From positions 640,001 to 704,000 of the forward strand of contig CALSNU010000001.1 in the NCBI GenBank assembly GCA_943787795.1: a stretch of DNA of 64,000 nt. Reading direction: 5' to 3'. Shown here piece by piece: positions 17,328-37,029 of the stretch. The notes below the pieces were generated by a model that saw nothing but the letters and a program-made list of their open reading frames with translations, searched no databases and was not told the origin of the DNA. Source of the DNA: an uncultured bacterium. GTDB taxonomy: Bacteria; Planctomycetota; UBA1135; GCA-002686595. The position numbers and the translations under genes were made by a program. Within the stretch, counting starts at the first letter, position 1, and the number at the start of each line of letters is the position of its first letter.

Positions 17328-18467
17328 ATGACTCGTCGCTTTCTGATCGCCAGCCTCGCCCTCACCGTTGCGCCTTCGTGTGGCAGCGTGTCGAACTTCC
17401 TGGAGAACCAGGCTCCCGTGGATGGGATGACCGTCACTCCAGCGGCCCAGGACGCGGCCCCCTCGGCCGAGGTGACCTTGCGGGTGGACGACGGAGCGGA
17501 CTGGATCCAGATCGTCTCGGGAGAATGGCTCCGCGGCGAGATCCTCAGGGTCCGGGACGACAGCCTCGACTTCGACAGCGACGAGCTCGACGAGCAGACC
17601 TTCGACTTCAGCGACGTCCTGCGGATCATCAGCCCGCACCACCAGGTGGTGCTGACGGAGGACGGGCGGATCTTCGAGGGACGGCTCTCCGTGGACGAGT
17701 CGTCCATCTGGATTGAAGGCGACAAGACCGTGAAGATCCCCCGCTCCGAGATGCTGTCGGTTCTGGCCGTGGAGGGCGGCGGGAACTCGACCTGGTCCGG
17801 AGAGGTGACGGCGGGCATCGCGATCCGTTCGGGTAACACGGACCAGGTCGACTACTCGACGGTCCTCGCCGCGACCCGGGAGACCGCGCGGACAAGGTGG
17901 GCGAGTCGGTACAGCGGCGCCGCCAGCGAGGTCAGCGGCACGGAGACGGCGAACAACCACAGGCTCGGGAGCACCTATGACGTCTTCATCACCAAGCGCA
18001 CGTTCTTCACTGTCCCCGGCGTCGACATCTATCGGGATCCCTTCCAGAACATCGGGCTCCGAGTGACACCCTACGCAGCGGTCGGATACGAGCTCGTCGA
18101 CACCGCCGATCACTCGCTCTCACTGAGCGCCGGTCCTGCATTTCAGTATCAGCGCTTCGACTCGGAGCTGGGCTCTGGTGAGTCGACGGATAACTCCTTT
18201 GCGGGCGTCCTGTCGACCCTCTACGACTGGGACATCACTGGAGATGTCGAGCTCAGCGCCAAGTACAACATCACGTTCCCGATTCCCGATGTGCAGGAGT
18301 ACAACCACAACGTGGTGGGGACGCTCTCGGTGGACCTGGTTGGAGACCTCGACCTGGACCTCTCGATGACTTGGGACCGGATCAACTCGCCGGAGGCGAA
18401 CTCGAGCGGGGTGGTGCCCAAGAAAGACGACTTCCGCATCACGGTCGGAGTTGGGTGGACGTTCTGA
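17328..18467 (+). CDS. DUF481-family outer-membrane beta-barrel protein
   Basis: N-terminal signal/lipobox, SGNT motif, D-x-F-x-N-I-x-L-R, alternating beta pattern, C-terminal VGVGWTF. Confidence 0.8.
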   Translation: MTRRFLIASLALTVAPSCGSVSNFLENQAPVDGMTVTPAAQDAAPSAEVTLRVDDGADWIQIVSGEWLRGEILRVRDDSLDFDSDELDEQTFDFSDVLRIISPHHQVVLTEDGRIFEGRLSVDESSIWIEGDKTVKIPRSEMLSVLAVEGGGNSTWSGEVTAGIAIRSGNTDQVDYSTVLAATRETARTRWASRYSGAASEVSGTETANNHRLGSTYDVFITKRTFFTVPGVDIYRDPFQNIGLRVTPYAAVGYELVDTADHSLSLSAGPAFQYQRFDSELGSGESTDNSFAGVLSTLYDWDITGDVELSAKYNITFPIPDVQEYNHNVVGTLSVDLVGDLDLDLSMTWDRINSPEANSSGVVPKKDDFRITVGVGWTF

Positions 18468-18876: not shown

Positions 18877-18966
18877 TGGCGGAGAGGGTGGGATTCGAAC
18901 CCACGGAACCCGCGAGGGCTCACCGCCTTAGCAAGGCGGCGCATTCGGCCACTCTGCCACCTCTCC
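18877..18966 (-). tRNA. tRNA-Ser(GCT)
   Basis: GGAGAGG acceptor stem, anticodon arm CCGCC-TTGCTAA-GGCGG, long variable arm, GTTCGAATC, discriminator G and encoded CCA. Confidence 0.97.
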
Positions 18967-19186: not shown

Positions 19187-21184
19187 ATGTCCGATCACTC
19201 TCACACCTCTGACGCCGCGAGAGGCCACCTCGCGGGCGCCCCGGCGGCTCGCCAGGCGCCCTCGAGGGGAGAGCTGGGCCATGCCCTCTTCCGGCTCTGG
19301 CTGCTCAACGTGTTGGCCGGCACCCTGGTAGGGTCCCTCTGGTTCTTCGACGCGCCGGTCGATCGCGCGCCGTGGATCCGCGTCTACGTCTCGCTCGCCC
19401 TCGTCTCCTCGGTGGCGGTGCTCGCCCTGGTGCCTGGCGTGGTGTTCCTGGTCATCTGGCGCTGGATCAAGAGCTGGCGCCTCGCCTGCCTGCTCGCGGG
19501 CTTCGTTGGGGCGTGGTTCCTCGCGATCCTCTACACGGACACCATCGTCTACCGGCTGCTGCGCTATCACTTCTTCGACAGCGCTGTCCTCAACGTGGTC
19601 CTGACCAAAGGAAGCGGGGACTCGATTATCCTCGGCGCCTATGTATGGGAGACCGCCGGGCTTGTCATCGGCGGGTTGACGCTGATTCAGTGCCTCGTCT
19701 CGGCGTGGTTTGCGCGTCGGATCCAGGGGCTGAACGAGGTGGGCGTGCGCGGCAACCTCTTTCTGCAGCCGAAGACGGTGGTGGTGCTCGGGTTGCTTCC
19801 CACGCTCCTGTTCAGTCAATCGGTCAGCGCCGCCGCGGACGTCGCCCAGCACCGGGAGGCGCTGCGGGCGATCCAGCCGATCCCGGTGGTCCCGAGGGTC
19901 CGGCTGGGGCAGATCATCGAGCCTCTCCTCGAACCGGACGCCGCTCGGCCGCCGGAGATGGAGCTGCTGCCGGTGGACGCGACGCTCGACTGGCCCCACC
20001 AGCGCCCCGAGATCCCCGCCGACGCGCCAAGGAAGAACGTCTTCGTGTGCGTGCTCGATTCCTGGCGCCGGGACATGTTCGATCAGGAGCTGACCCCCAA
20101 CATCAGCGCCTTCGCAGAGGGGGCCCGGGTGTTCGAGGATCATCTCTCTGGCGGCAACGGGACGCGCTACGGCCTGTTCACGATGCTCTATGGGCTGCAC
20201 GGCTCCTACTGGTTCCCCGTGCTCGCCCAGCGTCGCGCCCCCGTCCTCGTCGAGGCGATGCAAGCTGCTGGCTACGACGTTCGGATCTTCTCCAGCGCCT
20301 CGATGAGCTTCCCGGAGTTCCGGGAGACCGCCTGGGTGGGCGTGGACGATCAATCGATCCTCGATTCCTTCCCGCCGGGCCTTGTTTCCTATCAAAAGGA
20401 CGAGCTGCTCGCGGAGGCGTTCGAGGGGTGGATGGAGCGCCGCCGCGTGACCCGAGATCAGCGGCCCTTCTTCGCGTTCGTCCTGGTCGACGCGCCTCAC
20501 CAGCCGTACGAGAACCCTGGCGGGCCCTTCTCGCCCTCGGTGGAGTCCCTCGACTACATCGAGCTAGGACGGACCACGGAGGGGCCCGAGCTTGTGGCGC
20601 TGCAGGAGCGGGTGATGAACGCCTACAAGAACTCGGTCGTGCACGCGGACCAGACCGCCGGCCGGCTGCTGGAGACCCTGAAGCGCGCGGGGGAGTCCGA
20701 CGACACGTACACGATCGTCACCGGCGACCACGGAGAGGAGTTCTTCGAGTGCGGCTTCTGGGGGCACACCTCGAACTTCTCGCCGCCTCAGGTCCAGGTC
20801 CCGTTCATCTTCAGGGGACCTGGCATCGAGCCTGGCCGCGAGCCGCGCCCCACGTCTCACCTCGACTTCTCCAGCACCATGCTCGAGCTGCTCGGCGCGG
20901 ACCCTGCGATGCGAGGAGGGTACAGCCTTGGCGCCGACCTCCTCGATCCGCCCCAGACGCGCGAGCGCGTCGTCGCGGGCTGGAGCGATATCGGCCTATG
21001 GACGGAGTCCGGGATCTTCGACATCCCGCTGACGGCTCCGGGAATCGGAGGCTGGGTTCAGGAGCTGGAGTGCTATGAGCTCCCGTGGGAACCCGTGGAG
21101 GACGTGGCCCTGCGATGCCGCACCGAGCGTTCGGCGCTCGAGCAGATGGCCCGCGAGTGCACGAAGTTCCTCAAGGTCCGCTAG
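19187..21184 (+). CDS. YejM/PbgA-like (DUF3413 + sulfatase fold) membrane phospho/sulfo-transferase or hydrolase
   Basis: About 5 N-terminal TM helices, then LDSWRRD, HLSGGNGTRYGLFTMLYG (Thr nucleophile position), DAPHQPY, TGDHGEEF, WGH. Confidence 0.8.
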   Translation: MSDHSHTSDAARGHLAGAPAARQAPSRGELGHALFRLWLLNVLAGTLVGSLWFFDAPVDRAPWIRVYVSLALVSSVAVLALVPGVVFLVIWRWIKSWRLACLLAGFVGAWFLAILYTDTIVYRLLRYHFFDSAVLNVVLTKGSGDSIILGAYVWETAGLVIGGLTLIQCLVSAWFARRIQGLNEVGVRGNLFLQPKTVVVLGLLPTLLFSQSVSAAADVAQHREALRAIQPIPVVPRVRLGQIIEPLLEPDAARPPEMELLPVDATLDWPHQRPEIPADAPRKNVFVCVLDSWRRDMFDQELTPNISAFAEGARVFEDHLSGGNGTRYGLFTMLYGLHGSYWFPVLAQRRAPVLVEAMQAAGYDVRIFSSASMSFPEFRETAWVGVDDQSILDSFPPGLVSYQKDELLAEAFEGWMERRRVTRDQRPFFAFVLVDAPHQPYENPGGPFSPSVESLDYIELGRTTEGPELVALQERVMNAYKNSVVHADQTAGRLLETLKRAGESDDTYTIVTGDHGEEFFECGFWGHTSNFSPPQVQVPFIFRGPGIEPGREPRPTSHLDFSSTMLELLGADPAMRGGYSLGADLLDPPQTRERVVAGWSDIGLWTESGIFDIPLTAPGIGGWVQELECYELPWEPVEDVALRCRTERSALEQMARECTKFLKVR

Positions 21185-21214: not shown

Positions 21215-23674
21215 ATGCCGCTGCCTGTCCGCGCCGCGATCGTGGCGCTCGCCTGCCTGACCGCCCTCGTCGCCCTCAGCGTCCGAAAGGAGAGCGCCAT
21301 CGGCGTGGCCCTGGAGGCTGCCGCCACATCGCCCACGGTGTCCACAAGAGCGGACCGGAACGAGGGCCCGCTCACATGGGGGTCCTACGACCCGGACACG
21401 CTCTACCACGCTCGCCGCGTGGCGCGCGCGGTCCAGAATGCGGGCTGGGTGTCGTCCTATGACCCCTTCCTGGCGTACCCAGGAGGGCTCAGCGTCGACA
21501 GCCCCGGGACGGCGATCCCCTGGCCGCCGGCCTACGACCTTCTGCTGACGACGCTTGTGCGCCGCCGCCTCCCGTCGATGGAGGCGCTGCTCCCTCCCGA
21601 GCCGACCGAGGTTGACCCCGGCCCGCCCGGCGTCGCCGAACCACTCCTCCCCGCGACGCGTCGTCGCATCGAGCAGCTCGTCGCGTCAGTCCCCATGTGG
21701 TGCGGCGCTCTGACCGCGCTGATCGCCGCCCTGGCGTCCGCGGGGCTGGCCAGGACGCTCGTCCCAGCCGCACGCTCCTCGGTCGTGGCGATCGCCGCCG
21801 CGCTGGTCGCGGGCCTCACCGTGGCCTTCACGTTCGGGCATGTTCGTTACTCGCATCTGGGCAACGGCGATCATCACGCCTTCATCTCGCTGCTGCACCT
21901 GGCCTTGCTGGCGATCGTCGGCTCGAGCCTCCGGCCTGACCGGATCATCCGGCCGGTGGGCAGCGCCGCCCGGGGCGGCGCGGCGGGGCTGATCGCTGGG
22001 CTGATGATCACCAGTTGGACGGCCTCGATCTTGTGGGTCGCGCTCGTTCAGCTGGCGCTGGTCCTGAGGCTGGCGTTGCCCTTCAGGGAGGAGCGTGGGC
22101 TGCAGAGCGCGAGGGGGCTGCCCCTCTTTGCCACCACGTTCCACAAGGCGGCCCTGCTCATCGTCATGCCCGCGGCGATCGAGAGTCCCTTCAGCTCCTC
22201 GGACCCCTTCAGCCTCATCGAGCTGTCCTGGTTCCACATGGTGTGGCTAGCGATCGGCTGGCTGATCTTCGCGCCCTACGCGCTGCTTCCCCGCTTCGCG
22301 GCCGGGCGGCGCTTCGCTGCGATGCTCCCCGCCGTGGCCCTCGCGGCGGTCCTCTTGTTCGGCACGGATACCGGCGCGGGCCTGGTCGACGCGATCTCGT
22401 GGGCCGGGGCGGAGAATCCGTTCATGGGAGGGATCAACGAGTCCCAGCCGCTGGTGGGCTCCTTCCCAGCGCTGCTGAGGTTTGCGGGGGCGGGAGTCCT
22501 GCTCGCGCCTCTGGTCTGGGCCCTCGCTCTCCGGCAGGTCCGCACGGCGCCGCAGCTCCTGCCCTGGGTGATCTCCCTCCCTGTCTTGCTCCTCTTCGCG
22601 CTCCTGCAGCGGCGCTTCGCAGAGGGGCTGACGGCTCCGATGGCGGTCCTGCTGGGGTCCGTCCTCTCGGCCACCGTCTTGACTCGATTGGGGCGCGCGG
22701 AGCTCCGGCTGGCGGGCGCCTTGGGCCTCGGGCTCCTCGCCATCGCGGCGAACCCGAGCACCGTCAACGGCGTCCTCTCTCGTGGTCGGACCGCCGATCC
22801 GGAGCTGGCGCCCTTTGTGACCTGGACGGACATGGCCCGCCGCCAGCGCGCGCAGGCTGCGCTCCTTCAAGCGATGAGGGATGACGCCCCGAGATCGGAG
22901 CCCCTGCCGGTGGAGCCTCTACCTTCGGATCCCCTGCGATCGGACTTCCCTCCGTCGGACCCTCTGCCCTTGGGGGTCCTCGCGGAGTGGGACCTCGGCC
23001 ACTCCATCGAGTGGCGCGCCGAGCGACCCACCGTCGCCACCAACTTCGGCCTCTACCTGGGTGAGGCCTCATTCCTCGCTCCCTGGCGCTTCTTCGCCGA
23101 GACCGATGAGGCGGCGGCGCTTCAGATGCTGCAGCAGCTCGGAGTCGGCTCGGTGATCATCGATCGCCGGACGGCCGCCCGGCGCAGTGAGATCTCCGCC
23201 GCCCTCGGCCTCGGTGAGCGCGGTGAGGAGTTCTGGTCGAGGACCATGGGGGCGCGTCTTGTCGCTGGGGGCGAGAGCGCCGCGACTCAGCACCCTGGAT
23301 TCATGCGACTGGTCCGCTGGATCGACGCCAGCGTGGCGTCGGGCGGTATGCGGGCGTACGACGTCGTACGAGGGGCGCGGCTGCGCGCGGAGGGGGGGCT
23401 CCTGCAGGTCATGGCGACCCTGGCGGATGAGCGAGGGAGCATCTTCACATGGCGCGCTGCCGCGCGCGCCGGGGCCGGAGGAGGTGAGCTCGAAGTGCGC
23501 GTGCCCTACGGCTCCCCGGCGAGCCTCCCAGGAGAGGATCCCATGACTCAGCGCCCGGAGAGCGCCCGGGTGCGGGTCCTCGACCTCGAGATCTTCCTCG
23601 ACGGGGAAGCTGTGCCGGTGTCGATCACCGACTGGGATGTGGAGAACGGACTCTCCATTGACGTGAATATTTGA
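21215..23674 (+). CDS. STT3/AglB-like oligosaccharyltransferase (GT66, GT-C fold)
   Basis: YDPDTLYH, YDPFLAYPGG, WPPAYD, LGNGDHH, GINESQPL, QRRF, GVLAEWDLGH.I..AERPTVATNF; multiple TM helices and an AglB-like C-terminal beta domain (VRVPYG, DVENG). Confidence 0.8.
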   Translation: MPLPVRAAIVALACLTALVALSVRKESAIGVALEAAATSPTVSTRADRNEGPLTWGSYDPDTLYHARRVARAVQNAGWVSSYDPFLAYPGGLSVDSPGTAIPWPPAYDLLLTTLVRRRLPSMEALLPPEPTEVDPGPPGVAEPLLPATRRRIEQLVASVPMWCGALTALIAALASAGLARTLVPAARSSVVAIAAALVAGLTVAFTFGHVRYSHLGNGDHHAFISLLHLALLAIVGSSLRPDRIIRPVGSAARGGAAGLIAGLMITSWTASILWVALVQLALVLRLALPFREERGLQSARGLPLFATTFHKAALLIVMPAAIESPFSSSDPFSLIELSWFHMVWLAIGWLIFAPYALLPRFAAGRRFAAMLPAVALAAVLLFGTDTGAGLVDAISWAGAENPFMGGINESQPLVGSFPALLRFAGAGVLLAPLVWALALRQVRTAPQLLPWVISLPVLLLFALLQRRFAEGLTAPMAVLLGSVLSATVLTRLGRAELRLAGALGLGLLAIAANPSTVNGVLSRGRTADPELAPFVTWTDMARRQRAQAALLQAMRDDAPRSEPLPVEPLPSDPLRSDFPPSDPLPLGVLAEWDLGHSIEWRAERPTVATNFGLYLGEASFLAPWRFFAETDEAAALQMLQQLGVGSVIIDRRTAARRSEISAALGLGERGEEFWSRTMGARLVAGGESAATQHPGFMRLVRWIDASVASGGMRAYDVVRGARLRAEGGLLQVMATLADERGSIFTWRAAARAGAGGGELEVRVPYGSPASLPGEDPMTQRPESARVRVLDLEIFLDGEAVPVSITDWDVENGLSIDVNI
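22898..22972 (+). repeat. Degenerate 15-bp coding repeat x5 (EPLPV EPLPS DPLRS DFPPS DPLPL)
   Basis: Five in-frame units ending 4 codons before the EWDLG motif. Confidence 0.7.
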
Positions 23675-23788: not shown

Positions 23789-25282
23789 ATGCTCGACCAC
23801 GCTCGCTCAACCCTCATCTCCCTGCTCCTCGCCGCCGGAGTCGTCGCTACGGCTGGCGGGGCCACGCCCCAATCGATCGGCTCGCCACAGGTCGAGATCA
23901 ACCACGAGGAGCTCGCCGCCGAGTTCCTGAAGCGCTCGGGGCTTGACCCGGCTGGGGCGGCGCAGGTCTCGACTGAGGATTTGCTGGACCGCTCGTTCTT
24001 CACGATGCGCATCGGCGTGTTCGATCTGGGGCTGAGCTCCTATGCGGCGCTCAGTCGAGCGAACGGAGACAGCTTCGCGCTCCTCGCCGGGGCGCTGCTT
24101 GAGGTCCAGGCGCAGTTCCTGGAGTGGCTCGGTCCCAAGGCGCCGGGGATCAAGGAGGCCGAAAAGGATCTGAAGACGTTGAGGAGCTACTTCAAGAAGC
24201 TCCGCGGCAATGCCATCAACAAGCTCGACCCGAAGCAGACGGGCGACGTCATGACGTTGCTCGGAGCGAGCAAGAAGGCGCTCGAGGCACAGCAGCGCTT
24301 CGGCGCGTACATGGCGCGGGGCACGGGCCTGGGGCTTGACCGCGAGGACGAGTATGTGGACACCTTCCTGGTGGCGCCGGGGAGGCGGGACTTCCTCGAG
24401 CTCCTGAGCACGTTCGGCGCGATCAGCCCGCCCAACCAGAGCGTCTACTGGTCCAACGACGTCGCCACCTGGACCAACACCTACTTCAACGACATCTCCG
24501 TGGTCGCCCTCGAGTTCGCGAGTCCCGGCAGCTCTACCGGGGGGGCGTTCGCCGGTGTCAGCATGAACTCGCGCACGCCGACCGGGATGCAGCAGCAGAT
24601 CGCGCAGCTGGCCGGTAACGCGATGATCGACAACCTGTTTGGTGACAAGATCCCGCCCTCCCTGGCGGGCGCCTTGTCCGTCAACCTGGTCGTGGAGATC
24701 TACGGGGAGTGCAACACGCGGGTCGACGGGGACCTGCGGGCGCGCCGGACCCAGGCCCGCGAGATCTTCGTCCCGGGCGGGCTCTCCGAGGGCGGCGTCC
24801 TGCCCCCTAACCTTGCCGATAGCCGGTGGCGTTCCGAGCACGGCAAGGATCACTTCCTGGTGGCGCTCCAATCGGCCCAGGCCGCTGGCGCGAGCAAGGC
24901 GAGGAAGAAGTACGAGAAGAACGGGACCTTCGAGTTGATGGATGACCGTGAGGCCAAGCGCATGGTCGTCAAGGCTCCGTTCCTCGGGACCCCTGCCGCG
25001 GATGCGCCCCCGGTTCCGGACGACTTCTGGGGCGACAGCCTGGAGTTCTACCGCTCCTATCGCACCGGGTTCATCTACTGGCTGCGCACCAAGGGACAGC
25101 GCTCCAAGAAGAGCTCCGAGGCGGCCTTCGCGGCGTACCTGACACAGCTGGCGCAGGCAGATAGCGGGGGGGACTCCCTCGAGGCCACCTTCGAGGAGCA
25201 GTACGGCAAGCCCTTGAGCGCGAAGGAGCCCTCCAAGCAGGACCTCGAGGGGCAGTTCCTGGACTGGCTCTCGAAGCTCTGA
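23789..25282 (+). CDS. Hypothetical secreted protein
   Basis: 497 aa, strong coding bias, signal peptide (LLLAAGVVATAGGATPQ). Confidence 0.8.
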   Translation: MLDHARSTLISLLLAAGVVATAGGATPQSIGSPQVEINHEELAAEFLKRSGLDPAGAAQVSTEDLLDRSFFTMRIGVFDLGLSSYAALSRANGDSFALLAGALLEVQAQFLEWLGPKAPGIKEAEKDLKTLRSYFKKLRGNAINKLDPKQTGDVMTLLGASKKALEAQQRFGAYMARGTGLGLDREDEYVDTFLVAPGRRDFLELLSTFGAISPPNQSVYWSNDVATWTNTYFNDISVVALEFASPGSSTGGAFAGVSMNSRTPTGMQQQIAQLAGNAMIDNLFGDKIPPSLAGALSVNLVVEIYGECNTRVDGDLRARRTQAREIFVPGGLSEGGVLPPNLADSRWRSEHGKDHFLVALQSAQAAGASKARKKYEKNGTFELMDDREAKRMVVKAPFLGTPAADAPPVPDDFWGDSLEFYRSYRTGFIYWLRTKGQRSKKSSEAAFAAYLTQLAQADSGGDSLEATFEEQYGKPLSAKEPSKQDLEGQFLDWLSKL

Positions 25283-25308: not shown

Positions 25309-28206
25309 ATGCCGCCAACGCCCCGACTTCACTCCGCTGCCACCGCTTCGCCCGAGTTCCTGGGGTACGACGGACCGCTCCTGGCGAGGGCCGCTGAGAG
25401 CATCGTCGAGGAGGCGGGGGGGCCGGAGGATCTGGGGGAGATGATGATCGCGGTCCCCGGTGCCCGGGCCGGGCGCCAGCTGGCCCGGGAGCTGCGGGCC
25501 TGCGCCTCGGAGCGGGGCTGGGCGGGCTTCTTCGCGCCGACGATCACGACGCCCGGGGCGCTCGCGGATGCCCTCCTGCCCCTGGAGCATCCGCCCGCCG
25601 ACCGCACGACGCGGACGCTGGCGTGGGAGAGTGCCCTGGTGGGTGTTCGGCCCGAAATGCTCCTTCGGATCCTCTCGCGCCCGCCCGCACGGGGGGACCG
25701 CGCGGCCTGGTGGCGCGTGGCCGAGGAGCTCCGAGTGCTCCACGGGGAGCTCGCCCAGTGGGGCCATGACTTCGCCGCGGTGTTGAAGCGGCTGGAGACC
25801 CACTCTGGATGCCCGGTAGGGGAGCTCCGGCGCTGGGAGGCGCTGGTGGAGATCCAGAGCGTCTGGCGCGCGAAGATGACGAAGCTGGGGCTCTCGGATC
25901 CCCACGAGGGGCGCCTCCAGGCCCTCGAGTCGGGGCGGGTAGAGCGCGGGGCCCGGGTGGTCCTCGTGGGCGTCCTGGAGATGAACCGCCTGCTCCGCGA
26001 CGCGCTCCGCGGCCTCGACGAGGCGCCGCGTGTGCTCGTCTTCGCGCCGGAGGTCGCGGCCGAGGGCTTCGATGAGCTGGGGGCCCTCGTGACGTCACGG
26101 TGGGAGGAGGCGGAGGTGGACCTACCGCTCGACCAATGGCACGTGGTGGGGACCCCCGATGACCAGGCTCGCCTCGCCCTTTCCCTCGCGGCCGAGGCGG
26201 GGCCGGCGCACGCGGGTGAGCTGACGGTTGGGGTCCCGGATGGCGAGGTGGCGCCCCTGCTCGCGCGGCGGTTCGGCGCCGCTGACATCCACGCGAGGAG
26301 CGCCGCGGGGACGCCGCTTGGGCTCACAGCCCCGATGCGCCTGATCTCCGCGCTCGAGGCCTTTGCCCGCGCGCGCACGGCCGAGAACGCCGCGTCCCTC
26401 GTCCGCCACGGGGACCTCACGCGCTGGCTCGCCGGGCGCCTGGGGCACGACCCGGTCGCAAGGCTGGACAGGTACCGTCCGGAGCATCTGCCCCGGACGC
26501 TGGACCCCAGCCCCGAGGGTGGCGTCCTCGATCTCCCCGGCCAGGTGAGGGGGAGAGAGGACATCCGCCCGCTGCTGGGCGCGGTCGAGGAGTTGGGCGG
26601 GGCCCTCTTCACCGACGCCGCCGGCTCGCTCGCCGATCACGTGGGCCGGCTCCGCGAGCTCCTGATGCTCGTCTACGGCGAGCACCCGCTCCTTGAACAG
26701 GCTCGGACCAGCGAACCCGGCCGCCACGTGGAGGTCGCGCTTCGACGGCTGGGGACCGTCATGGATGAGCTCGAACGGATCCCCGCGACGGTGGCGAGGC
26801 AGATGAAGCCAGCCGACGCGCTGCGGCTGGTCTACTGGACGGCGGGGGGCGCGGCGGTCCCTGACCCGGTCGGGCAGGAGGGCCAGCCTGTGGTCGAGCT
26901 GCTCGGCTGGCTAGAGCTGCTCCTCGACGGGGCGCCGCACCTTGTGGTGACGGGCTTCAACGAGTCCAAGGTCCCCGAGCCCTCGACCCGGGACCCCTTC
27001 CTCCCGGACTCCATCCGCACGCTACTCGGGCTCGAGGATGACGCGCGTCGCACCGCGCGGGATGTCTACACCATGATCGCGCTCCTGCACTCGAAGCGAT
27101 CGCTGCACCTCATCAGCGGCAGGACGACCCGGGACGGGGACCCGCTGTTCCCCAGCCGACTGGCCTTCAGGGCGGGGGTCCAGGACGTGGCCGCGAGGGT
27201 GGATCACGCCCTCGAGCCCGTGGGGTTCGCGCCGGTGGAGGCGAACGACCGGGACGTGTCCGCAGAGCTTCCTCCGGTGATCGCGGACCCCCTGCCCCAG
27301 GACCGGTTCGCGGTGACCTCCTTCAAGTCCTTCCTGGACTCGCCGCTCCTCTACTACGTCCAGCGCGTCCTTCGCCTGGAGGCGGTGGACGACCGCGCGG
27401 GTGAGCTCGATGCGCTGCGGTTCGGCACCCTCGCCCACGACGTGCTCGAGGACCTCGGTACGAACGAGGAGCTGCGGGAGTCCACCAGCGTCGAAGACGT
27501 CGATGGGTTCCTACTCCATCGGCTCGACCGGCGGGCGGCAATGAGGTTCCCCAAGGCCGTCATGCCGGCGGTGCAGATTCAGCTCGGCCAGCTCCGGCTC
27601 CGCCTGAAGAGCTTCGCCCTCTGGCACGTGGGCGAGGTGCGCGACGGGTGGCGGATCCGCCACGCGGAGTGGAGCCCCGAGGGCGACGCCTCCATCGGCC
27701 GCGAGGGGTGCGCCCGGCTCGACATGGGGGCCGGTGAGGAGCCGGCGTGGATCCGCGGCAAGATCGACCGCATCGAGCAGCACTCGAAGACCGGGTTCTG
27801 GCGCGTGCTGGACTACAAGACCAGCCACAAAAGCAATGACCCCGCGAAGGTGCACCGCAAGAAGAACGGGGACTGGAAGGACCTCCAGCTTCCGCTCTAC
27901 GCCCACATGGTGCAGCCCCTGGTGGGGAGCGGCGTCGTGCCAGATCTGGGCTACGTCAACCTGCCCGGAGACGGGACCCGCGTGGAGCTCAAGCTCGTGG
28001 ACGGCAAGGTCACCTGGGGGCCTGAGGACATCCAGGACGCGATGGAGTGCGCCCGCGGCGTGGTCCGGCGGGTCCGGGCGGGCGACGTGGAGGACCTCGG
28101 CCGCGTGAAGACGGAGTTCATGCTTCCGATCGAGCGCGAGCTCCTCGGGGTCGGCCTGGTGCGTGAGCCCGATCCGGTCGCAGACGACGAGGAGGAGCGG
28201 TCATGA
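25309..28206 (+). CDS. addB: AddB/RexB-like subunit with PD-(D/E)XK nuclease domain
   Basis: VPGARAGR, VTGFNE..VP, PSRL, IRGKIDRIE...LDYKT...DLQLPLY; ATGA overlap with addA. Confidence 0.82.
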   Translation: MPPTPRLHSAATASPEFLGYDGPLLARAAESIVEEAGGPEDLGEMMIAVPGARAGRQLARELRACASERGWAGFFAPTITTPGALADALLPLEHPPADRTTRTLAWESALVGVRPEMLLRILSRPPARGDRAAWWRVAEELRVLHGELAQWGHDFAAVLKRLETHSGCPVGELRRWEALVEIQSVWRAKMTKLGLSDPHEGRLQALESGRVERGARVVLVGVLEMNRLLRDALRGLDEAPRVLVFAPEVAAEGFDELGALVTSRWEEAEVDLPLDQWHVVGTPDDQARLALSLAAEAGPAHAGELTVGVPDGEVAPLLARRFGAADIHARSAAGTPLGLTAPMRLISALEAFARARTAENAASLVRHGDLTRWLAGRLGHDPVARLDRYRPEHLPRTLDPSPEGGVLDLPGQVRGREDIRPLLGAVEELGGALFTDAAGSLADHVGRLRELLMLVYGEHPLLEQARTSEPGRHVEVALRRLGTVMDELERIPATVARQMKPADALRLVYWTAGGAAVPDPVGQEGQPVVELLGWLELLLDGAPHLVVTGFNESKVPEPSTRDPFLPDSIRTLLGLEDDARRTARDVYTMIALLHSKRSLHLISGRTTRDGDPLFPSRLAFRAGVQDVAARVDHALEPVGFAPVEANDRDVSAELPPVIADPLPQDRFAVTSFKSFLDSPLLYYVQRVLRLEAVDDRAGELDALRFGTLAHDVLEDLGTNEELRESTSVEDVDGFLLHRLDRRAAMRFPKAVMPAVQIQLGQLRLRLKSFALWHVGEVRDGWRIRHAEWSPEGDASIGREGCARLDMGAGEEPAWIRGKIDRIEQHSKTGFWRVLDYKTSHKSNDPAKVHRKKNGDWKDLQLPLYAHMVQPLVGSGVVPDLGYVNLPGDGTRVELKLVDGKVTWGPEDIQDAMECARGVVRRVRAGDVEDLGRVKTEFMLPIERELLGVGLVREPDPVADDEEERS

Positions 28207-31200
28207 GCCAGGCCGAGCTGTTCGGAGAAGACGACTCCATCAAGAAGCGGCGCCAGCTGCTCCTGGCATCGGCGGGCACCGGCAAGACCTTCCGGCTGGC
28301 CAACCACTTCGCCGGGCTTCTGGTGGCGGGCGTGGAGCCCAAGCAGGTGCTCGCGGCGACCTTCACCCGCAAGGCGGCGGGGGAGATCCTTGACCGGGTG
28401 CTCAAGCGCCTCCGCGAGGGCGCGGAGGAGGGCGCGGCAGGCGAGGAGGCGCGGGGCTATCTCCTGGAGGCCGCCCAGGCCGTGGAGCCCTATCGGGACA
28501 GCCTCTCCACCGGGGAGTGCGCGGAGACCCTCGCGCGGCTGGTCCGCCGCATCGAGCGCTTCCGGGTCCAGACCCTCGATGCCTTCTTCATCAGCCTCTC
28601 CCAGCTCTTCGCCATGGAGCTCGAGCTGGCCCCTGAATTCGCCATCGGGACGGCGGTGCAGGAGGTCGGCCTCGCCGCCGAGACCGTGGCACGGGTGCTG
28701 GACGGGCTCGAGGACGGTGAACGCCTCGAGCTCCTGCGGGCGCTCGTGCGCGGCGGGGCGTCCCGCAAGGCGCAGTCGGCGCTGCTGGAGGCGGTGTCCG
28801 AGGCCGAGAACGCCGCCGCCCAGGTGGGACCTGACGCGTGGGGGAACCTGAAGCCCCTCGATGGGGTGGATCCCGCCGAGGTGGAGGCCCAGGTCCGCTG
28901 TCTGCACCAGTGTGATGTGCCCGTCACCGCCAAGGGGGAGCCGAACAAGCTGTTTGCCAACGCGATCGACGCTCTGCGGGCGCTCGTCGGAGATGGCAGT
29001 GATCCGATCGACTCCTCCTTCTTCGGCATCGGCCTGGTGGAGAAGGTGATCGCCGGGGATGAGAAGTTCGCGCGCGCTCCGATCCCCGAGGACATCGCGG
29101 GAGCGATTCAAGTCCTCGCGCAGCGTGCCGGGGAGGACGCGGTCAATGAGCTCCTCACGCGGAACGAGGCCATGGGGTCCTTCCTGACCAAGTACGCCAG
29201 GGCCGAGGACAACCTCAGGGCCGAGTGGGGCATCTACCGCTTCCAGGACTTCTCGCGCGCTCTCGAGCGTGGGCCCGCGCGGGAGCAGCCCGAGGTCTGG
29301 CGTCAGGCGCTTGGCTTCCGGATGGACGCCAAGCTCTCGCACCTGCTGCTCGACGAGTTCCAGGACACCTCGGCCCAGCAGTGGCGCCTCCTCTTGCCCC
29401 TGGCGGAGGAGGTCCTCGCCGACGGCACCGAGGAGTCGAGCTTCTTCTGCGTGGGGGACGTGAAGCAGTCCATCTATGGGTGGCGTGGGGGCGAGCCTCG
29501 CCTCCTCTCGAGGATGCACGAGCGGCACCCCGGCCTCGAGAAGGAGGAGATGGTGGAGAACTATCGCTCCTCGAGGGTGATCCTCGACGTGGTCAACCAG
29601 GTCTTCGAGGGGCTGGCGGACCGCATGGCGCTGGCCGGAGAGAAGCGCTCCGCGGTCCGGCAGGCGGCCAGGCGCTGGAGCGAGAACTTCGGGCCCCACG
29701 AGGCGAAGAAGGACCTCCCGGGCGAGGCCCACGTCTGGCAGGTGCGCGCCCACGAGAAGGACCGCGGAGAGGTCAAGATGGACCCCGCCGTGGACCTCGC
29801 CGTCGAGCGGGTCCGCGTGCTCCACGCACGTCACCCCGACGCGTCCATCGCGATCCTCGTGCGGACCGCGAAGCTGGTTCCGACCCTGCGCTACCGCCTC
29901 GGGAAGGTCGGTATCGAGGCGAGCGACGAGGGCGGGAACCCGCTCACGGACTCCCTGCCGGTGACATGGCTGCTCGGGCTGCTCCAGCTCGCGGACCACC
30001 CAGGTGACGGCATCGCCGCCCTGCAGGTGGCGCGCTCTCCGTTCGGCCCGGACCTCGGACTGCTCCCCGCGGATGCGGGGAGCACGGATGCGCAGCGGCG
30101 GGCCTCGGAAGTCTCCGCGGAGCTCAGGGAGGAGCTCCTGCATATGGGATACGGACCGTTCTTCCAGCGCCGCATGGCGAGGCTCACCGAGGACGCCTCG
30201 GCCTGGGACCTGCGCCGCCTCGAGCAGCTCGTGGACCTCGCCGAGATCCACGACGCGGAGCCTGGACTGCGCCCGGCGGACTTCGCGGACGAGGTCCGCG
30301 CGAAGAAGGTCTCCGATCCCTCCCAGGCGCGGGTCAAGGTCATGACCATCCACGCCTCCAAGGGGCTCGAGTTCGACGCCGTCGTACTCCCCGAGCTGGG
30401 CCGGCTCTGGCAGCTCACGCCCAAGGGCGTGCTCCTCGAGTCCGAGTCCGAGGTGGCGCCTCCGCGGGTGGCGACGATGGCGCCCAGGGCGGACGTGGCT
30501 GCGCAGCACCCCGAGCTGGAGGCCCTGTACGAGGGCGAGAAGGAGCGCCAGATGGTCGACGAGCTCTCCGGGCTCTATGTGGCGCTGACCCGGGCGGTGC
30601 ACTCGATCGATCTGATCGTCTCCGCGCCTGGCAAGAAGTCGCCCAGCCAGAGCCACGGTGCCCTCGTCGCGGAGGCCTTCGATGGTCAGATCGTCGGTGA
30701 ACTCACCTTCGAGGGCGACCACGAGAAGGTCTGGTCCCACGCCGATTCCACCGACGCCTGGGCCCCGGTGCACGAGGGTCGCGCCAAGGAGCCCGTCGAG
30801 GAACACCGGCTGCAGCTGGATCCAGCGCCACAAGAAGACGCCGTCCGTGCCCCCAGCTCCGCGGGGCATTCGTCCGAGTCCGTACGCTCGTTGCTCTCCG
30901 GCTCCAGCGGCCGCGGCGCGCGCTTCGGGACGCTCGTGCACGCCCTCTTCGAGGACGTCGAGTGGTGGGGTCAGGGGCCGCGCGCGGATGCGGAGATGCG
31001 GGCCAGTCTTGGCCGCATCGGCGCGGAGGACCCCGAGCTCGTGGACGGTGCCCTCGCGAGGTTCCACGAGGCCATGGCTTCAGAGGCGCTGGTCCAGCTG
31101 CTCACCTGCCCGCCTGGTGAGGTCACGGTCCACAACGAGCGCTCCTTCGAGGTTCAGGTGGAAGATGAGGATGGAGCCCAGCTCCGCTGGCGCGGGTTCA

Positions 31201-31442
31201 TCGACCGGCTCGTGCTGCACCGGGAAGGGGGACGCGTAAAGAGCGCGCAGGTGATCGACTACAAGACCGACGCGGTCGCCTCGTCGGACGAGGTCCGCGC
31301 GGCCCACCGTGAGCAGATGGAGGCGTACCGATCGGCGGTCGCCGCGCTCTTCGGTCTGCCGTCCTCGGACGTCTCGTGCGCGCTCGTCTGGCTGAAGGAC
31401 CCTTCGGTCGCAGGCGTCGGCGCCGAGGTCCTCGAGGTCTGA
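28203..31442 (+). CDS. addA: AddA/RexA-like UvrD helicase with C-terminal PD-(D/E)XK nuclease
   Basis: ASAGTGKT, TFTRKAA, LDEFQDT, VGDVKQSIYGWRG, ENYRS, TIHASKGLEF, LYVALTRA, GFIDRL...IDYKT. Confidence 0.9.
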   Translation: MSQAELFGEDDSIKKRRQLLLASAGTGKTFRLANHFAGLLVAGVEPKQVLAATFTRKAAGEILDRVLKRLREGAEEGAAGEEARGYLLEAAQAVEPYRDSLSTGECAETLARLVRRIERFRVQTLDAFFISLSQLFAMELELAPEFAIGTAVQEVGLAAETVARVLDGLEDGERLELLRALVRGGASRKAQSALLEAVSEAENAAAQVGPDAWGNLKPLDGVDPAEVEAQVRCLHQCDVPVTAKGEPNKLFANAIDALRALVGDGSDPIDSSFFGIGLVEKVIAGDEKFARAPIPEDIAGAIQVLAQRAGEDAVNELLTRNEAMGSFLTKYARAEDNLRAEWGIYRFQDFSRALERGPAREQPEVWRQALGFRMDAKLSHLLLDEFQDTSAQQWRLLLPLAEEVLADGTEESSFFCVGDVKQSIYGWRGGEPRLLSRMHERHPGLEKEEMVENYRSSRVILDVVNQVFEGLADRMALAGEKRSAVRQAARRWSENFGPHEAKKDLPGEAHVWQVRAHEKDRGEVKMDPAVDLAVERVRVLHARHPDASIAILVRTAKLVPTLRYRLGKVGIEASDEGGNPLTDSLPVTWLLGLLQLADHPGDGIAALQVARSPFGPDLGLLPADAGSTDAQRRASEVSAELREELLHMGYGPFFQRRMARLTEDASAWDLRRLEQLVDLAEIHDAEPGLRPADFADEVRAKKVSDPSQARVKVMTIHASKGLEFDAVVLPELGRLWQLTPKGVLLESESEVAPPRVATMAPRADVAAQHPELEALYEGEKERQMVDELSGLYVALTRAVHSIDLIVSAPGKKSPSQSHGALVAEAFDGQIVGELTFEGDHEKVWSHADSTDAWAPVHEGRAKEPVEEHRLQLDPAPQEDAVRAPSSAGHSSESVRSLLSGSSGRGARFGTLVHALFEDVEWWGQGPRADAEMRASLGRIGAEDPELVDGALARFHEAMASEALVQLLTCPPGEVTVHNERSFEVQVEDEDGAQLRWRGFIDRLVLHREGGRVKSAQVIDYKTDAVASSDEVRAAHREQMEAYRSAVAALFGLPSSDVSCALVWLKDPSVAGVGAEVLEV

Positions 31443-34680: not shown

Positions 34681-34819
34681 AGGCGCTCGGAGAGGGGTGT
34701 GTGGTGGGGCGCGGATACGCTCGTGGACTCAGCGGGTACTCTGGATCGCGGCCATCTCGCGCACGTACCCAGTGCGAGCGTGAGTGACCGAGCGGGGACT
34801 CCGCGAGAGGAACAGCACC

Positions 34820-36661
34820 ATGAGCAGCACCATCATTCGACTGGCGGCCACGCTGACCCTCGCTGGAGCCGCGATCTCCATCTGGGGGAGCCTCCCGTCC
34901 AGCACAGCCCAGGACGCGAGCGGGGTCCACGTGCTCAGTGAGTTCCGGGACAACGGGCGAGGCCGGCTGGACGAGGCGCTTCGGGTCCTTGGTCGTGAGA
35001 CGCGCGCCGTGATCCGAGTGGACATCGACGACGTGTTGCACGGGGCCCTGAAGGTCCCACCGAACATCGCGCTCGTGCACGAGGGGGCCTCCTTGATCGA
35101 TCTCGCGGGGCAACGTTTGGAGATTGCCGGTTCGTTCGATGCGACTCAGGCGCAGGTCTTCTTCGGAGTGGGCAAGGTGTCCCTGGCGCCGGGGAGCACC
35201 CGCCAGGTCCTCCCGCAGTGGTGGGGGAGCAACGACTCCGACAGCGTGCAGGCAGCCATGGACGTCGCCCTCGAGTGCGGCGCGGAGGTCTTCATGCCCG
35301 CCGGTTCGTACACGTTCGATTCGACGGTCGAGGCTTACTTCGAGGGCACGGGGTTCAACGCTCGGGCCCTCAAGGTGCGAGGAGATGGTCCGGGGCGCAC
35401 GGTCATCGAGAACCGGGTCGCGAGCGGCGCCGCGTTCTACTTCGGCACGCGGAATCCGATCGCTCAGCAGGCGTGGTTCCTGACGGTCGAGGGGCTCGAG
35501 GTGACGAGCCGCTCCGGAAGGGGCCAGCATGGCATCGAGATTGAGGACGTCTGGAACGGTCGGATCTCGGACTGCCTGATCAGCGATCAGGCCGTGGACG
35601 GCATCGTCATGCGGGCCGACCAGAATGACTTCGGGCTGCCCAAGACCTGGACGATCGAGCGGTCACTGATCGTGCGGAACGGTCGCTACGGCATCTACAT
35701 GGGAGCTGCCGGCGCGGGCTCGGTGGCCTACAACGTCACGCTCGATCAACTCGACATCGAGTTGAACGGACAGGGAGGCGTCTACGCGGCCGCCGAGCTG
35801 TCGCGGATCACGAATTCGATCATCGCCAACAATGGAACGGGGCCGACCTCCCATGGTGGCGTCTACATGACGGGCGACACGGACTACCGCGCCTATGCCA
35901 ACGCCATCTCCGGGTGCGGCTTCGAGGCGAACGTCCCGTACGACATCTATGCCGACCGCGTCGCCAACCTGACGCTGGCGCGCAACGACCACAGCCGTAT
36001 CCAGATCACCTCAGGCGCGAGCCAGGACGCCTTCGTTCGCCTCGACGGACCGGAGGGCGCGTTCAACGTGCTCCTCGCGCACAACCAGTTCTCCTCCGGG
36101 ATCCAGAGTCCGTTTACTGCCATCGTGGGCGGCCCCGGACTGGAGAGCATCGAGCTGGACAACAACCGCTTCAACCTCGCGCCAGGGAACGAGCCAACGG
36201 GCTTTGAGAGCACGACGAAGTCGACCCACCGGACGCTCGGCGACGCGGTCTTGAGCAACCAGTCGATCTCCTTTGCGGCAGCCCAGACCAGCGCAGGCGA
36301 CGTGAAGCTGGCGCGGGGCGGGCCGGGCATCCTCTCCGTGGACGGGATCGCGACGAAGATGCAGTCGGTCACGTCGAGCAACGGTGCGCTCGCGCTGGAC
36401 TGCAGCGTCGGCCTGACGGTCCTGCACTCCCTCACCGAGAGCACCATCGTTCAGGTCCCCGCGAACCCCGTCGCCGGGGCCATCTTGAACCTCTCGATCT
36501 TCCAGCCCCCCGGCGCGGCGCACAGCATCGGCTTCAAGCCCATCTTCAAGGTGGCGGACCCGCTCACGGCCAGCGGCGGGCACTTCTCCACGACCCGCTT
36601 CCTCTTCACGGGCCTCTACTGGGTCCAGCTCGGCGCCGCCGCGATTGACGCGCCGCTCTGA
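34820..36661 (+). CDS. Secreted right-handed beta-helix (pectate lyase 3 / tailspike-like) protein
   Basis: Signal peptide ending AQD; VLPQWWGSNDSDSVQAAMD, VFMPAGSY, LKVRGDG; Asn/Gly-rich beta-helix coils. Confidence 0.8.
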   Translation: MSSTIIRLAATLTLAGAAISIWGSLPSSTAQDASGVHVLSEFRDNGRGRLDEALRVLGRETRAVIRVDIDDVLHGALKVPPNIALVHEGASLIDLAGQRLEIAGSFDATQAQVFFGVGKVSLAPGSTRQVLPQWWGSNDSDSVQAAMDVALECGAEVFMPAGSYTFDSTVEAYFEGTGFNARALKVRGDGPGRTVIENRVASGAAFYFGTRNPIAQQAWFLTVEGLEVTSRSGRGQHGIEIEDVWNGRISDCLISDQAVDGIVMRADQNDFGLPKTWTIERSLIVRNGRYGIYMGAAGAGSVAYNVTLDQLDIELNGQGGVYAAAELSRITNSIIANNGTGPTSHGGVYMTGDTDYRAYANAISGCGFEANVPYDIYADRVANLTLARNDHSRIQITSGASQDAFVRLDGPEGAFNVLLAHNQFSSGIQSPFTAIVGGPGLESIELDNNRFNLAPGNEPTGFESTTKSTHRTLGDAVLSNQSISFAAAQTSAGDVKLARGGPGILSVDGIATKMQSVTSSNGALALDCSVGLTVLHSLTESTIVQVPANPVAGAILNLSIFQPPGAAHSIGFKPIFKVADPLTASGGHFSTTRFLFTGLYWVQLGAAAIDAPL

Positions 36662-36939: not shown

Positions 36940-37029
36940 TGGCGGAGGCGGAGGGATTCGAACCCCCGGTGGGTTGCCCCACGTCGGTTTTCAAAACCGG
37001 TGCATTCAGCCAGGCTCTGCCACGCCTCC
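36940..37029 (-). tRNA. tRNA-Ser(TGA)
   Basis: GGAGGCG acceptor stem, anticodon loop TTTGAAA, variable arm GTGGG-GCAA-CCCAC, GTTCGAATC, G-CCA end. Confidence 0.96.

Follow-up and report, generated by a model that had tools for sequence, protein, structure and literature searches.

The gene at positions 21,215 to 23,674 of the window analyzed here, a 64,000-nucleotide stretch of DNA from an uncultured planctomycete, encodes a protein (P0001) that, by its sequence and model, is a real and intact AglB-L-like member of glycosyltransferase family GT66. By motif criteria, it lies outside the canonical oligosaccharyltransferases (OSTs) that recognize N-x-S/T, as it has neither a complete WWD motif nor the active-site Arg (R154) of Archaeoglobus fulgidus AglB-L (AfAglB-L). 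We propose, with a probability of about 0.45, that P0001 may be an active GT66 N-oligosaccharyltransferase whose rule for the acceptor's +2 position has changed or become looser, a proposal drawn from sequence and a predicted structure. We favor a changed rule because the Asn-activating pair of acids, the metal ligands, the phosphate-binding Arg, and the domain that binds the peptide have all been retained, whereas some freedom to vary is seen in the residues that recognize the hydroxyl.

The reading frame starts with ATG and runs for 819 amino acids without an internal stop, and is thus intact. A motif scan of this open reading frame (ORF) found every motif where the initial annotation of this DNA had placed it, with YDPFLAYP at residue 82 and WPPAYD at residue 103, and its assignment of these motifs to the catalytic Asp, DHH, TIXE Glu, Arg, and WWDYG equivalents was right according to alignments and published passages. 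The ordered motif set occurred in 0 of 10,000 shuffles of P0001, which serves only as a sanity check since the pattern was derived from P0001 itself. The features of the gene are as follows (PMC- and DOI-numbered sources are cited throughout for particular passages).

21215..23674, + strand: AglB-L-like GT66 oligosaccharyltransferase homolog P0001 (ORF, profile, model, and fold searches)
21389..21397, + strand: first DxD motif, D59-P-D61, in DPDTLYH (residue 59); D61 corresponds to AfAglB D47 and PglB D56
21848..21850, + strand: Y212, which replaces the active-site Arg (R154 of AfAglB, R147 of PglB) in the register of the profile alignment; a clade-wide change
21869..21877, + strand: second DxD motif, D219-H-H221, in GNGDHH (residue 216); corresponds to AfAglB D161-H162-H163, metal ligands
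22421..22444, + strand: motif of external loop 5 (EL5), FMGGINES (GINESQP at residue 406; INE at 22433); E409 corresponds to AfAglB E360
22607..22618, + strand: QRRF (residue 465); the conserved Arg, R467, is taken to bind phosphate by analogy to PglB R375 (PMC7226087)
22985..23002, + strand: EWDLGH (residue 591; nucleotide 22985), replacing WWDYGH in the profile alignment
23036..23050, + strand: ATNFG (residue 608), at the place of the DGGK/DNNT motif (NNF in AfAglB-S); N610 is conserved
23348..23671, + strand: C-terminal beta-sandwich domain, common to AfAglB-L (profile match and model strands)

The correspondence of D61 to D47 was obtained through a homolog profile and a joint alignment, and AfAglB D47 and PglB D56 act as metal ligand and in acceptor activation (PMC8342417, PMC7226087). 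Printed alignments pair E591, W592, D593, and H596 with AfAglB-L W550, W551, D552, and H555, the last at the PglB Y468 position. N610 is kept in 265 of the 275 non-WWD sequences of the family alignment described below, and the Asn of ATNFG may correspond to human N544, a pairing that follows from motif order rather than from an alignment. The C-terminal beta domain noted at the outset matched AfAglB-L residues 761 to 866 in the profile search (E 4.4e-7), with model strands from residue 697 onward; PF18079 (AglB_L1) is annotated in many relatives, not in P0001.

Searched alone, P0001 gave family matches that appear real though they lie below curated cut-offs, namely Pfam AglB_core-like (E 1e-5; 26.3 vs 27 bits), Pfam STT3 (E 6e-3), and TIGR04154, the archaeosortase A-associated AglB (E 3.8e-23; 81.8 vs 450 bits). 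Its only sequence match in the PDB was AfAglB-L, a weak one that already set EWDLGH opposite WWDYGH. A profile built from 58 P0001 homologs matched AfAglB-L (E 3e-31) over a span that begins in the membrane domain and takes in the C-terminal beta domain, compared with 2.5e-5 for STT3A and 0.16 for PglB, and gave no match to DPY19, ArnT, or PMT at E up to 10. Using the AlphaFold2 model (predicted local distance difference test score 89.8, predicted template modeling [TM] score 0.91), Foldseek placed AfAglB-L at the top (E 3e-23, TM 0.67), followed by STT3 (2e-13 to 9e-10), DPY19 (8e-9), PglB (4e-8), and ArnT (9e-4). VIA-align superposed the model on AfAglB-L with Z 27.9 and a root-mean-square deviation (rmsd) of 3.2 Å over 636 aligned residues, up to residue 819/868, and scored STT3 at Z 22-26 (STT3B 25.8), PglB at 22.5, DPY19 at 21.5, ArnT at 20.2, and PMT at 18.5; by this global superposition, the catalytic residues may converge on one metal site. 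AfAglB-L is thus the best match by profile, Foldseek, and VIA-align, in line with the AglB type first proposed; the ArnT or PMT match that had been named as contrary evidence did not appear, and identity with ArnT, PMT, or DPY19 is ruled out. The GT-C membrane domain and the C-terminal globular domain are homologous over their full length to GT66 (STT3/AglB/PglB), and the GT66 residue set of D61, D219-H221, E409, and R467 is present in order.

Among characterized systems, AfAglB-L (PDB 3WAJ, 3WAK, 5GMY, and 7E9S) shares with P0001 its entire architecture, C-terminal beta domain included, the D47/DHH/E360/Arg set, and W551-D552-x-G-H555-x-x-E558. P0001 differs from it by W550 to E, Y553 to L, R154 to Y, T357 to G, and the lack of a conserved counterpart of K618, as well as in its bacterial diderm host; the two are ~20% identical. 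Haloarchaeal AglB (TIGR04154; Haloferax lucentense L105 and Halocatena salina L106) has DHH/DHN, the TIXE Glu, QxRF, and GH after the WWD position in common with P0001, whereas WWDYG and the counterpart of R154 are retained throughout that clade (8 of 8 members). Campylobacter and Desulfovibrio PglB share the bacterial single-subunit GT66 fold, and P0001, which is much more distant from them than from AfAglB-L, departs from them in its DHH in place of DxD, its His at Y468, and the absence of a pgl gene cluster; the Desulfovibrio enzymes have relaxed specificity, the relaxation in PglB concerning the -2 position, and keep WWDxG. Eukaryotic STT3A/B resemble P0001 in fold and catalytic acids and, unlike it, keep WWDYG, DK, and SVSE, work in a multi-subunit complex, and have no AglB-L beta domain. 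DPY19 C-mannosyltransferase, ArnT, and PMT share the GT-C membrane fold, at ~10-13% identity and with clearly lower fold scores, and lack the coverage of the C-terminal beta domain that AglB-L gives; DPY19 shows the fold to be compatible with another acceptor.

Reviews describe WWD as strictly conserved and as the reader of +2, the structural ground for the Ser/Thr that N-glycosylation requires there (PMC7226087, PMC10859629). We analyzed its occurrence in an alignment of 351 sequences (each a protein or locus ORF at least 600 residues long, after dereplication at 75% identity, with shorter ones left out) and in a FastTree tree of 624 columns, which is arbitrarily rooted and includes no PglB or STT3. 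A canonical AglB-like clade (n = 47, support 0.999), with four haloarchaea and one Dehalococcoidia protein as named members and one member from a planctomycete genome, has the first Trp in 46, the second Trp in 45, and the Asp in 45. In the planctomycete clade (n = 172) the corresponding counts are 0, 171, and 100, and in its sister clade (n = 103; five named members, from Myxococcota or Deltaproteobacteria) they are 0, 93, and 8; 29 of the 351 sequences fall outside the three clades, one of them with WWD. Position 591 has an entropy of 3.3 bits vs 0.15 in the canonical controls, being occupied by E, Q, H, S, N, P, A, or D, and many paralogs in the bacterial family are without the WWD Asp as well. 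By comparison, D61, D219, E409, and R467 are nearly invariant across all three clades; within the planctomycete clade, D61 is found in 169 of 172, with gaps in the remaining 3, E409 in 172 of 172, and R467 in 171 of 172.

EWDLG is the commonest form at the motif (20 of 145 rows) and is common to the nearest homologs, so E591 is no sequencing error. Hence the Trp-to-Glu substitution put forward in the initial annotation is confirmed (E591 aligns with W550), but it is not special to this gene: across a large bacterial family the position is hypervariable, and by alignment Glu591 belongs to a wide range of residues seen where constraint has been released. DHH is likewise present as described, yet it is no mark of archaeal origin, as it is general in the bacterial family and in WWD-bearing relatives, including P0303 (L094, WWDAG) from another planctomycete genome. 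Planctomycete genomes with WWD-keeping AglB-like proteins are represented by L094 (G086) and by L087 (G051), which has WWDLG; L087 is also the sole case among the 351 of WWD together with Tyr at the R154 position.

Other active-site changes, absent from that annotation, accompany the loss of the first Trp: R154 to Tyr and the loss of the DK Lys and the TIXE Thr. Of the 275 non-WWD sequences, 265 have Tyr at the R154 position, where 46 of 47 canonical controls have Arg; AfAglB R154 and PglB R147 are counted among metal-site residues (PMC7226087). The active-site Arg seven residues before DHH/DxD is accordingly missing from P0001, which has Y212 there. Across the 351 sequences, 280 combine Tyr with a non-Trp residue and 45 combine Arg with Trp, counts that reflect one evolutionary event rather than independent cases. 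The TIXE Thr is not conserved (AfAglB T357 is Gly in P0001), nor is the DK Lys, and E224, Y470, Y471, and P606 are further canonical residues that are lost. The WWD-less family has new invariants in F403, S410, R68, W103, and W396, of which F403 and S410 in EL5 are family-specific. In addition, PglB uses the Y468 position to bind the first sugar's C2 acetamido group (PMC7226087, PMC10859629); because P0001 has H596 there, as do AfAglB-L and haloarchaeal AglB, we weakly infer from sequence a donor lacking that group.

Under the proposed mechanism, P0001 would be a single-subunit AglB-L-type OST in the inner membrane. We infer that D61, D219, H221, and E409 would hold a divalent metal, that R467 would hold a polyprenyl-phosphate-linked glycan, and that this glycan would be moved en bloc onto the Asn amide of exported proteins; the acids that activate the Asn amide (D61 and E409) are kept family-wide. 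The acceptor pocket would have been rebuilt through the loss of the first WWD Trp, the unkept TIXE Thr and DK Lys, and the replacement of R154 by Tyr. The +2 rule would then differ from or be looser than N-x-S/T, and W592 and D593 may still grip the backbone at +2 and accept a hydroxyl.

Several observations weigh against this reading, beginning with the pocket itself. In the own orthologous subclade (n = 46), position 591 is Q in 25, E in 12, H in 6, P in 2, and T in 1, while W592 is kept in 46 of 46, D593 in 44, and L594 in 34. The retention of W592 and D593 speaks against a total loss of +2 reading in P0001; judging from these residues, some Ser/Thr reading may survive, and P0001 is among the milder pocket cases of its family. 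The altered or relaxed sequon suggested earlier therefore holds as a change of the pocket, not as a demonstrated relaxation. An ordinary N-OST with an unchanged need for N-x-S/T, in which W592, D593, and a polar residue 591 would suffice to read the +2 hydroxyl, seems unlikely to us. It would accord with a PglB simulation in which Asp (D465) dominates the +2 interaction at -20.7 kcal/mol, against -3.0 for each Trp (PMC8479172), and with D650, which aligns with the DK-motif Asp of AfAglB (D in 13 of 46 orthologs, where the alignment is gappy). However, Glu cannot donate the bond of the first Trp's indole NH, one of the three key ones (PMC8479172), the DK Lys and TIXE Thr are unconserved, and paralogs drop the Asp yet keep the catalytic set, so that the family as a whole needs no such pocket.

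Sequon statistics likewise give this ordinary enzyme no support. Genes were called with a home-made caller (3,439 genes) and divided by a hydropathy rule into 693 exported and 1,647 cytoplasmic proteins. The 693 predicted exported proteins showed no excess of N-x-S/T (930 observed vs 893 expected), in a weak and uninformative test that had no positive control. S/T at +2 of Asn had an observed/expected ratio of 1.04 (z 1.4) in exported and 1.01 in cytoplasmic proteins, with other offsets alike; N-P-S/T showed no depletion (74 vs 70.5), reaching z = 3 would take ~90 more sites, and 0 of 1,296 proteins had an outstanding sequon count at p < 0.001.

A second point concerns the catalytic center, which the change of R154 to Tyr touches and which could thereby support another chemistry. 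The acceptor class may have switched to O-glycosylation of Ser, Thr, or Tyr or to a nonprotein envelope acceptor (lipopolysaccharide or lipid, or a wall polymer), possibly together with a YejM-like enzyme encoded upstream, although we regard this as doubtful. Such a switch would fit the coupling of first-Trp loss with R154 to Tyr, the loss of E224 and the other canonical residues, the rarity of the Asp in the sister clade, where some members are also without the second Trp, and the precedent of DPY19. Moreover, the planctomycete protein glycosylation that has been characterized, that of the anammox surface layer (S-layer), is O-linked, and its glycans are the only planctomycete protein glycans that we found reported; the earlier statement that planctomycetes have no characterized system hence stands for N-linked glycosylation, for which none was found, and falls for protein glycosylation in general. 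Against a switch, D61, E409, N610, the EL5 motif, and the globular domain at the C terminus, which make up the peptide/Asn site, are kept, and no link to anammox O-glycosylation was found, the phylum-sample matches with fetched loci having a G+C content of 0.50-0.75, none low.

The genes flanking P0001 bear on the same alternative.

19187..21184 (start could be 19166), + strand: YejM/PbgA-like membrane metalloenzyme of the sulfatase superfamily, the conserved upstream neighbor in the own subclade
23789..25282, + strand: exported 497-amino-acid protein with no Pfam family, a zincin-like fold, and no HExxH, the conserved downstream neighbor

The YejM-like protein is strongly conserved and carries DUF3413 and Sulfatase domains (NF038282 E 9e-31, far under the cut-off). 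Its gene lies directly upstream in 22 of the 23 own-subclade loci with enough flank, which, with the sulfatase-family genes beside some other family members, would fit a change of acceptor class, but in 0 of 47 loci of other subclades. The downstream gene directly follows in 18 of 21 own-subclade loci (L004 also has it) and in 0 of 52 of the others. The block often reaches clpC, a UvrB/C-motif gene, and murD, and because of this larger conserved block, the link between the neighbors may be plain inherited synteny. Arylsulfatase-type genes adjoin, or stand one gene from, the family members at L023, L024, L026, L034, L043, and L050, sometimes in runs of up to four.

The downstream protein has the fold of collagenase/M1 peptidases (best Z 10.8, rmsd 4.7 Å, 237 aligned residues), and its highly conserved RxDGDLRxRRT and FVPGGxSEGGxLP motifs lie in a low-confidence loop of the model; it is possibly an inactive peptidase-like binding protein. 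No conserved N-x-S/T was found in its Asn contexts, and a complex prediction of OST residues 52-720 with its residues 186-497 gave no answer (score 0.00), which is no evidence either way. A scan for promoters and terminators returned nothing beyond chance. Three RNA runs from one study and one probable DNA run gave short low-depth contigs across the region, intergenic parts included, which are not evidence of transcription.

The rate of evolution is a third point. P0001 is under purifying selection, with ratios of nonsynonymous to synonymous substitution rates (dN/dS) of 0.18-0.32 against seven close orthologs. The upstream gene gives 0.05-0.12 over seven pairs and the downstream gene 0.07-0.18 over six, so that the P0001 gene is changing two to four times faster than its neighbors. 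This higher ratio, the lost R154, the patchy presence in 69 of the 113 genomes of the window's family by profile match, and the hydrolytic side activity of OSTs (PMC8342417) would all suit a non-transferring protein, whether a lipid-linked-glycan hydrolase, a scaffold, or a decaying gene. We consider it very improbable, given metal and phosphate ligands nearly invariant over hundreds of sequences at ~30% identity, a dN/dS well under 1, profile matches in the other genomes of the genus (10 of 10), and repeated duplication.

Finally, N-glycosylation by P0001 would call for a lipid-linked donor, and no genes for lipid-linked-glycan synthesis were found beside its gene. Nor did 71 loci reveal a glycan-synthesis cluster linked to the family, the recurrent neighbors being mostly unrelated (72 of 699 predicted proteins scanned). 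The genome encodes initiating transferases, GT2s, and Wzx and GtrA flippases, with matches over the cut-off for PF02397 (2), PF00953 (3), PF00535 (21), PF01943 (4), PF04138 (1), and PF13231 (7). Since the same donor families are common in control genomes (e.g., E. coli and B. subtilis), these matches establish no more than a capacity to make donors. A GT2 gene and a GtrA gene lying side by side at G000:C2:622618-623441 form a possible polyprenyl-phosphate-sugar synthase/flippase pair (PF04138 match).

The planctomycete host stated in the initial annotation is supported by the named close homologs, which are Planctomycetota and include Saltatorellus ferox Poly30. Within the phylum, 25 of 401 genomes have profile matches, most of them in the window's own order; genomes of the window's family have up to five matches each (which are not copy numbers), and 1,393 proteins reach E 1e-30 or better in a library clustered at 50% identity, canonical AglBs included. 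P0001 is a single copy in its genome assembly (85% complete), in which no WWD-bearing canonical paralog was found; a second PF02516 match, considered as a paralog, turned out to be a PMT_2-type protein. Elsewhere, tandem paralog pairs are present in 13 of 71 loci, with 41-48% identity and differing pocket residues; ten of the 13 are SWD[H/Q]G beside HWDRG, largely one inherited pair. Family members also occur in assemblies labeled Paceibacteria, Eiseniibacteriota, Paracoccaceae, and Gemmatimonadota (L024, L037, L038, L040, L054, and L067); some such labels may be misbinning because L038 has a planctomycete gene order.

A wider proposal, which we hold tentatively and with some doubt, is that a large bacterial AglB-L branch in planctomycetes and Myxococcota uncoupled OST catalysis from N-x-S/T. 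The loss of WWD and the change of R154 to Tyr would then signal a move to another acceptor rule or another class of acceptor (O-linked, or Asn independent of a sequon). Up to five paralogs per genome, each with pocket residues of its own, would read different signals, and in the own subclade the zincin-like neighbor, which has no catalytic motif, could present the acceptor.

In the full-text literature, which leaves most subscription journals and supplements outside its scope, we found no description of a WWD-less bacterial AglB or a planctomycete N-OST; the passages covered of PMC12229607, PMC6025236, PMC5088730, and bioRxiv 10.1101/2020.12.03.409086, 10.64898/2026.04.15.718822, and 10.64898/2026.09.03.749169 likewise contain none. 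Bacterial homologs are reported to nest within Euryarchaeota through at least two transfers (PMC4973528), and WWDXG variation is mentioned among archaeal paralogs (PMC5131992), where the cited surveys of AglB motif variants could bear on novelty. The homology itself is already in databases, with many relatives labeled STT3-like, whereas the rewritten pocket is not. Overall, the AglB-L-like GT66 identity, the motifs, and the host survive from the initial reading of this DNA, the specialness of the Glu and DHH as an archaeal mark do not, and the relaxed sequon is kept as a possibility. If a changed +2 rule is correct, a family under purifying selection that keeps its catalytic center and rewrites its pocket would show how the +2 Ser/Thr rule can change, would supply an OST with another acceptor rule for glycoengineering, for which the relaxed PglBs described in the passages covered are relaxed only at -2, and would be a first candidate for N-glycosylation in planctomycetes. 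The question is testable in a named strain because the complete genome of Saltatorellus ferox Poly30 carries an ortholog (L013, HWDLG) in the same three-gene block.

Other features of the surroundings were as follows. Two tRNA-Ser genes, with GCT and TGA anticodons, lie at 18877-18966 (-) and 36940-37029 (-); in the closest relatives alone, the first of them and a DUF481 porin-like gene (17328-18467) break up the PEGA/murD-YejM block, which is otherwise conserved. An AddAB-like pair, a PD-(D/E)xK nuclease protein and a UvrD helicase-nuclease, occupies 25309-31442 (+). A second GT-C-like membrane protein at 37067-38938 (-), with a weak PMT_2 match (E 0.007) in a genome that has at least 10 such matches, adjoins a tRNA and a beta-helix pectate-lyase-like protein (34784-36661). 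At L055, two GT2 genes stand directly upstream of the family member, together with a radical SAM gene.

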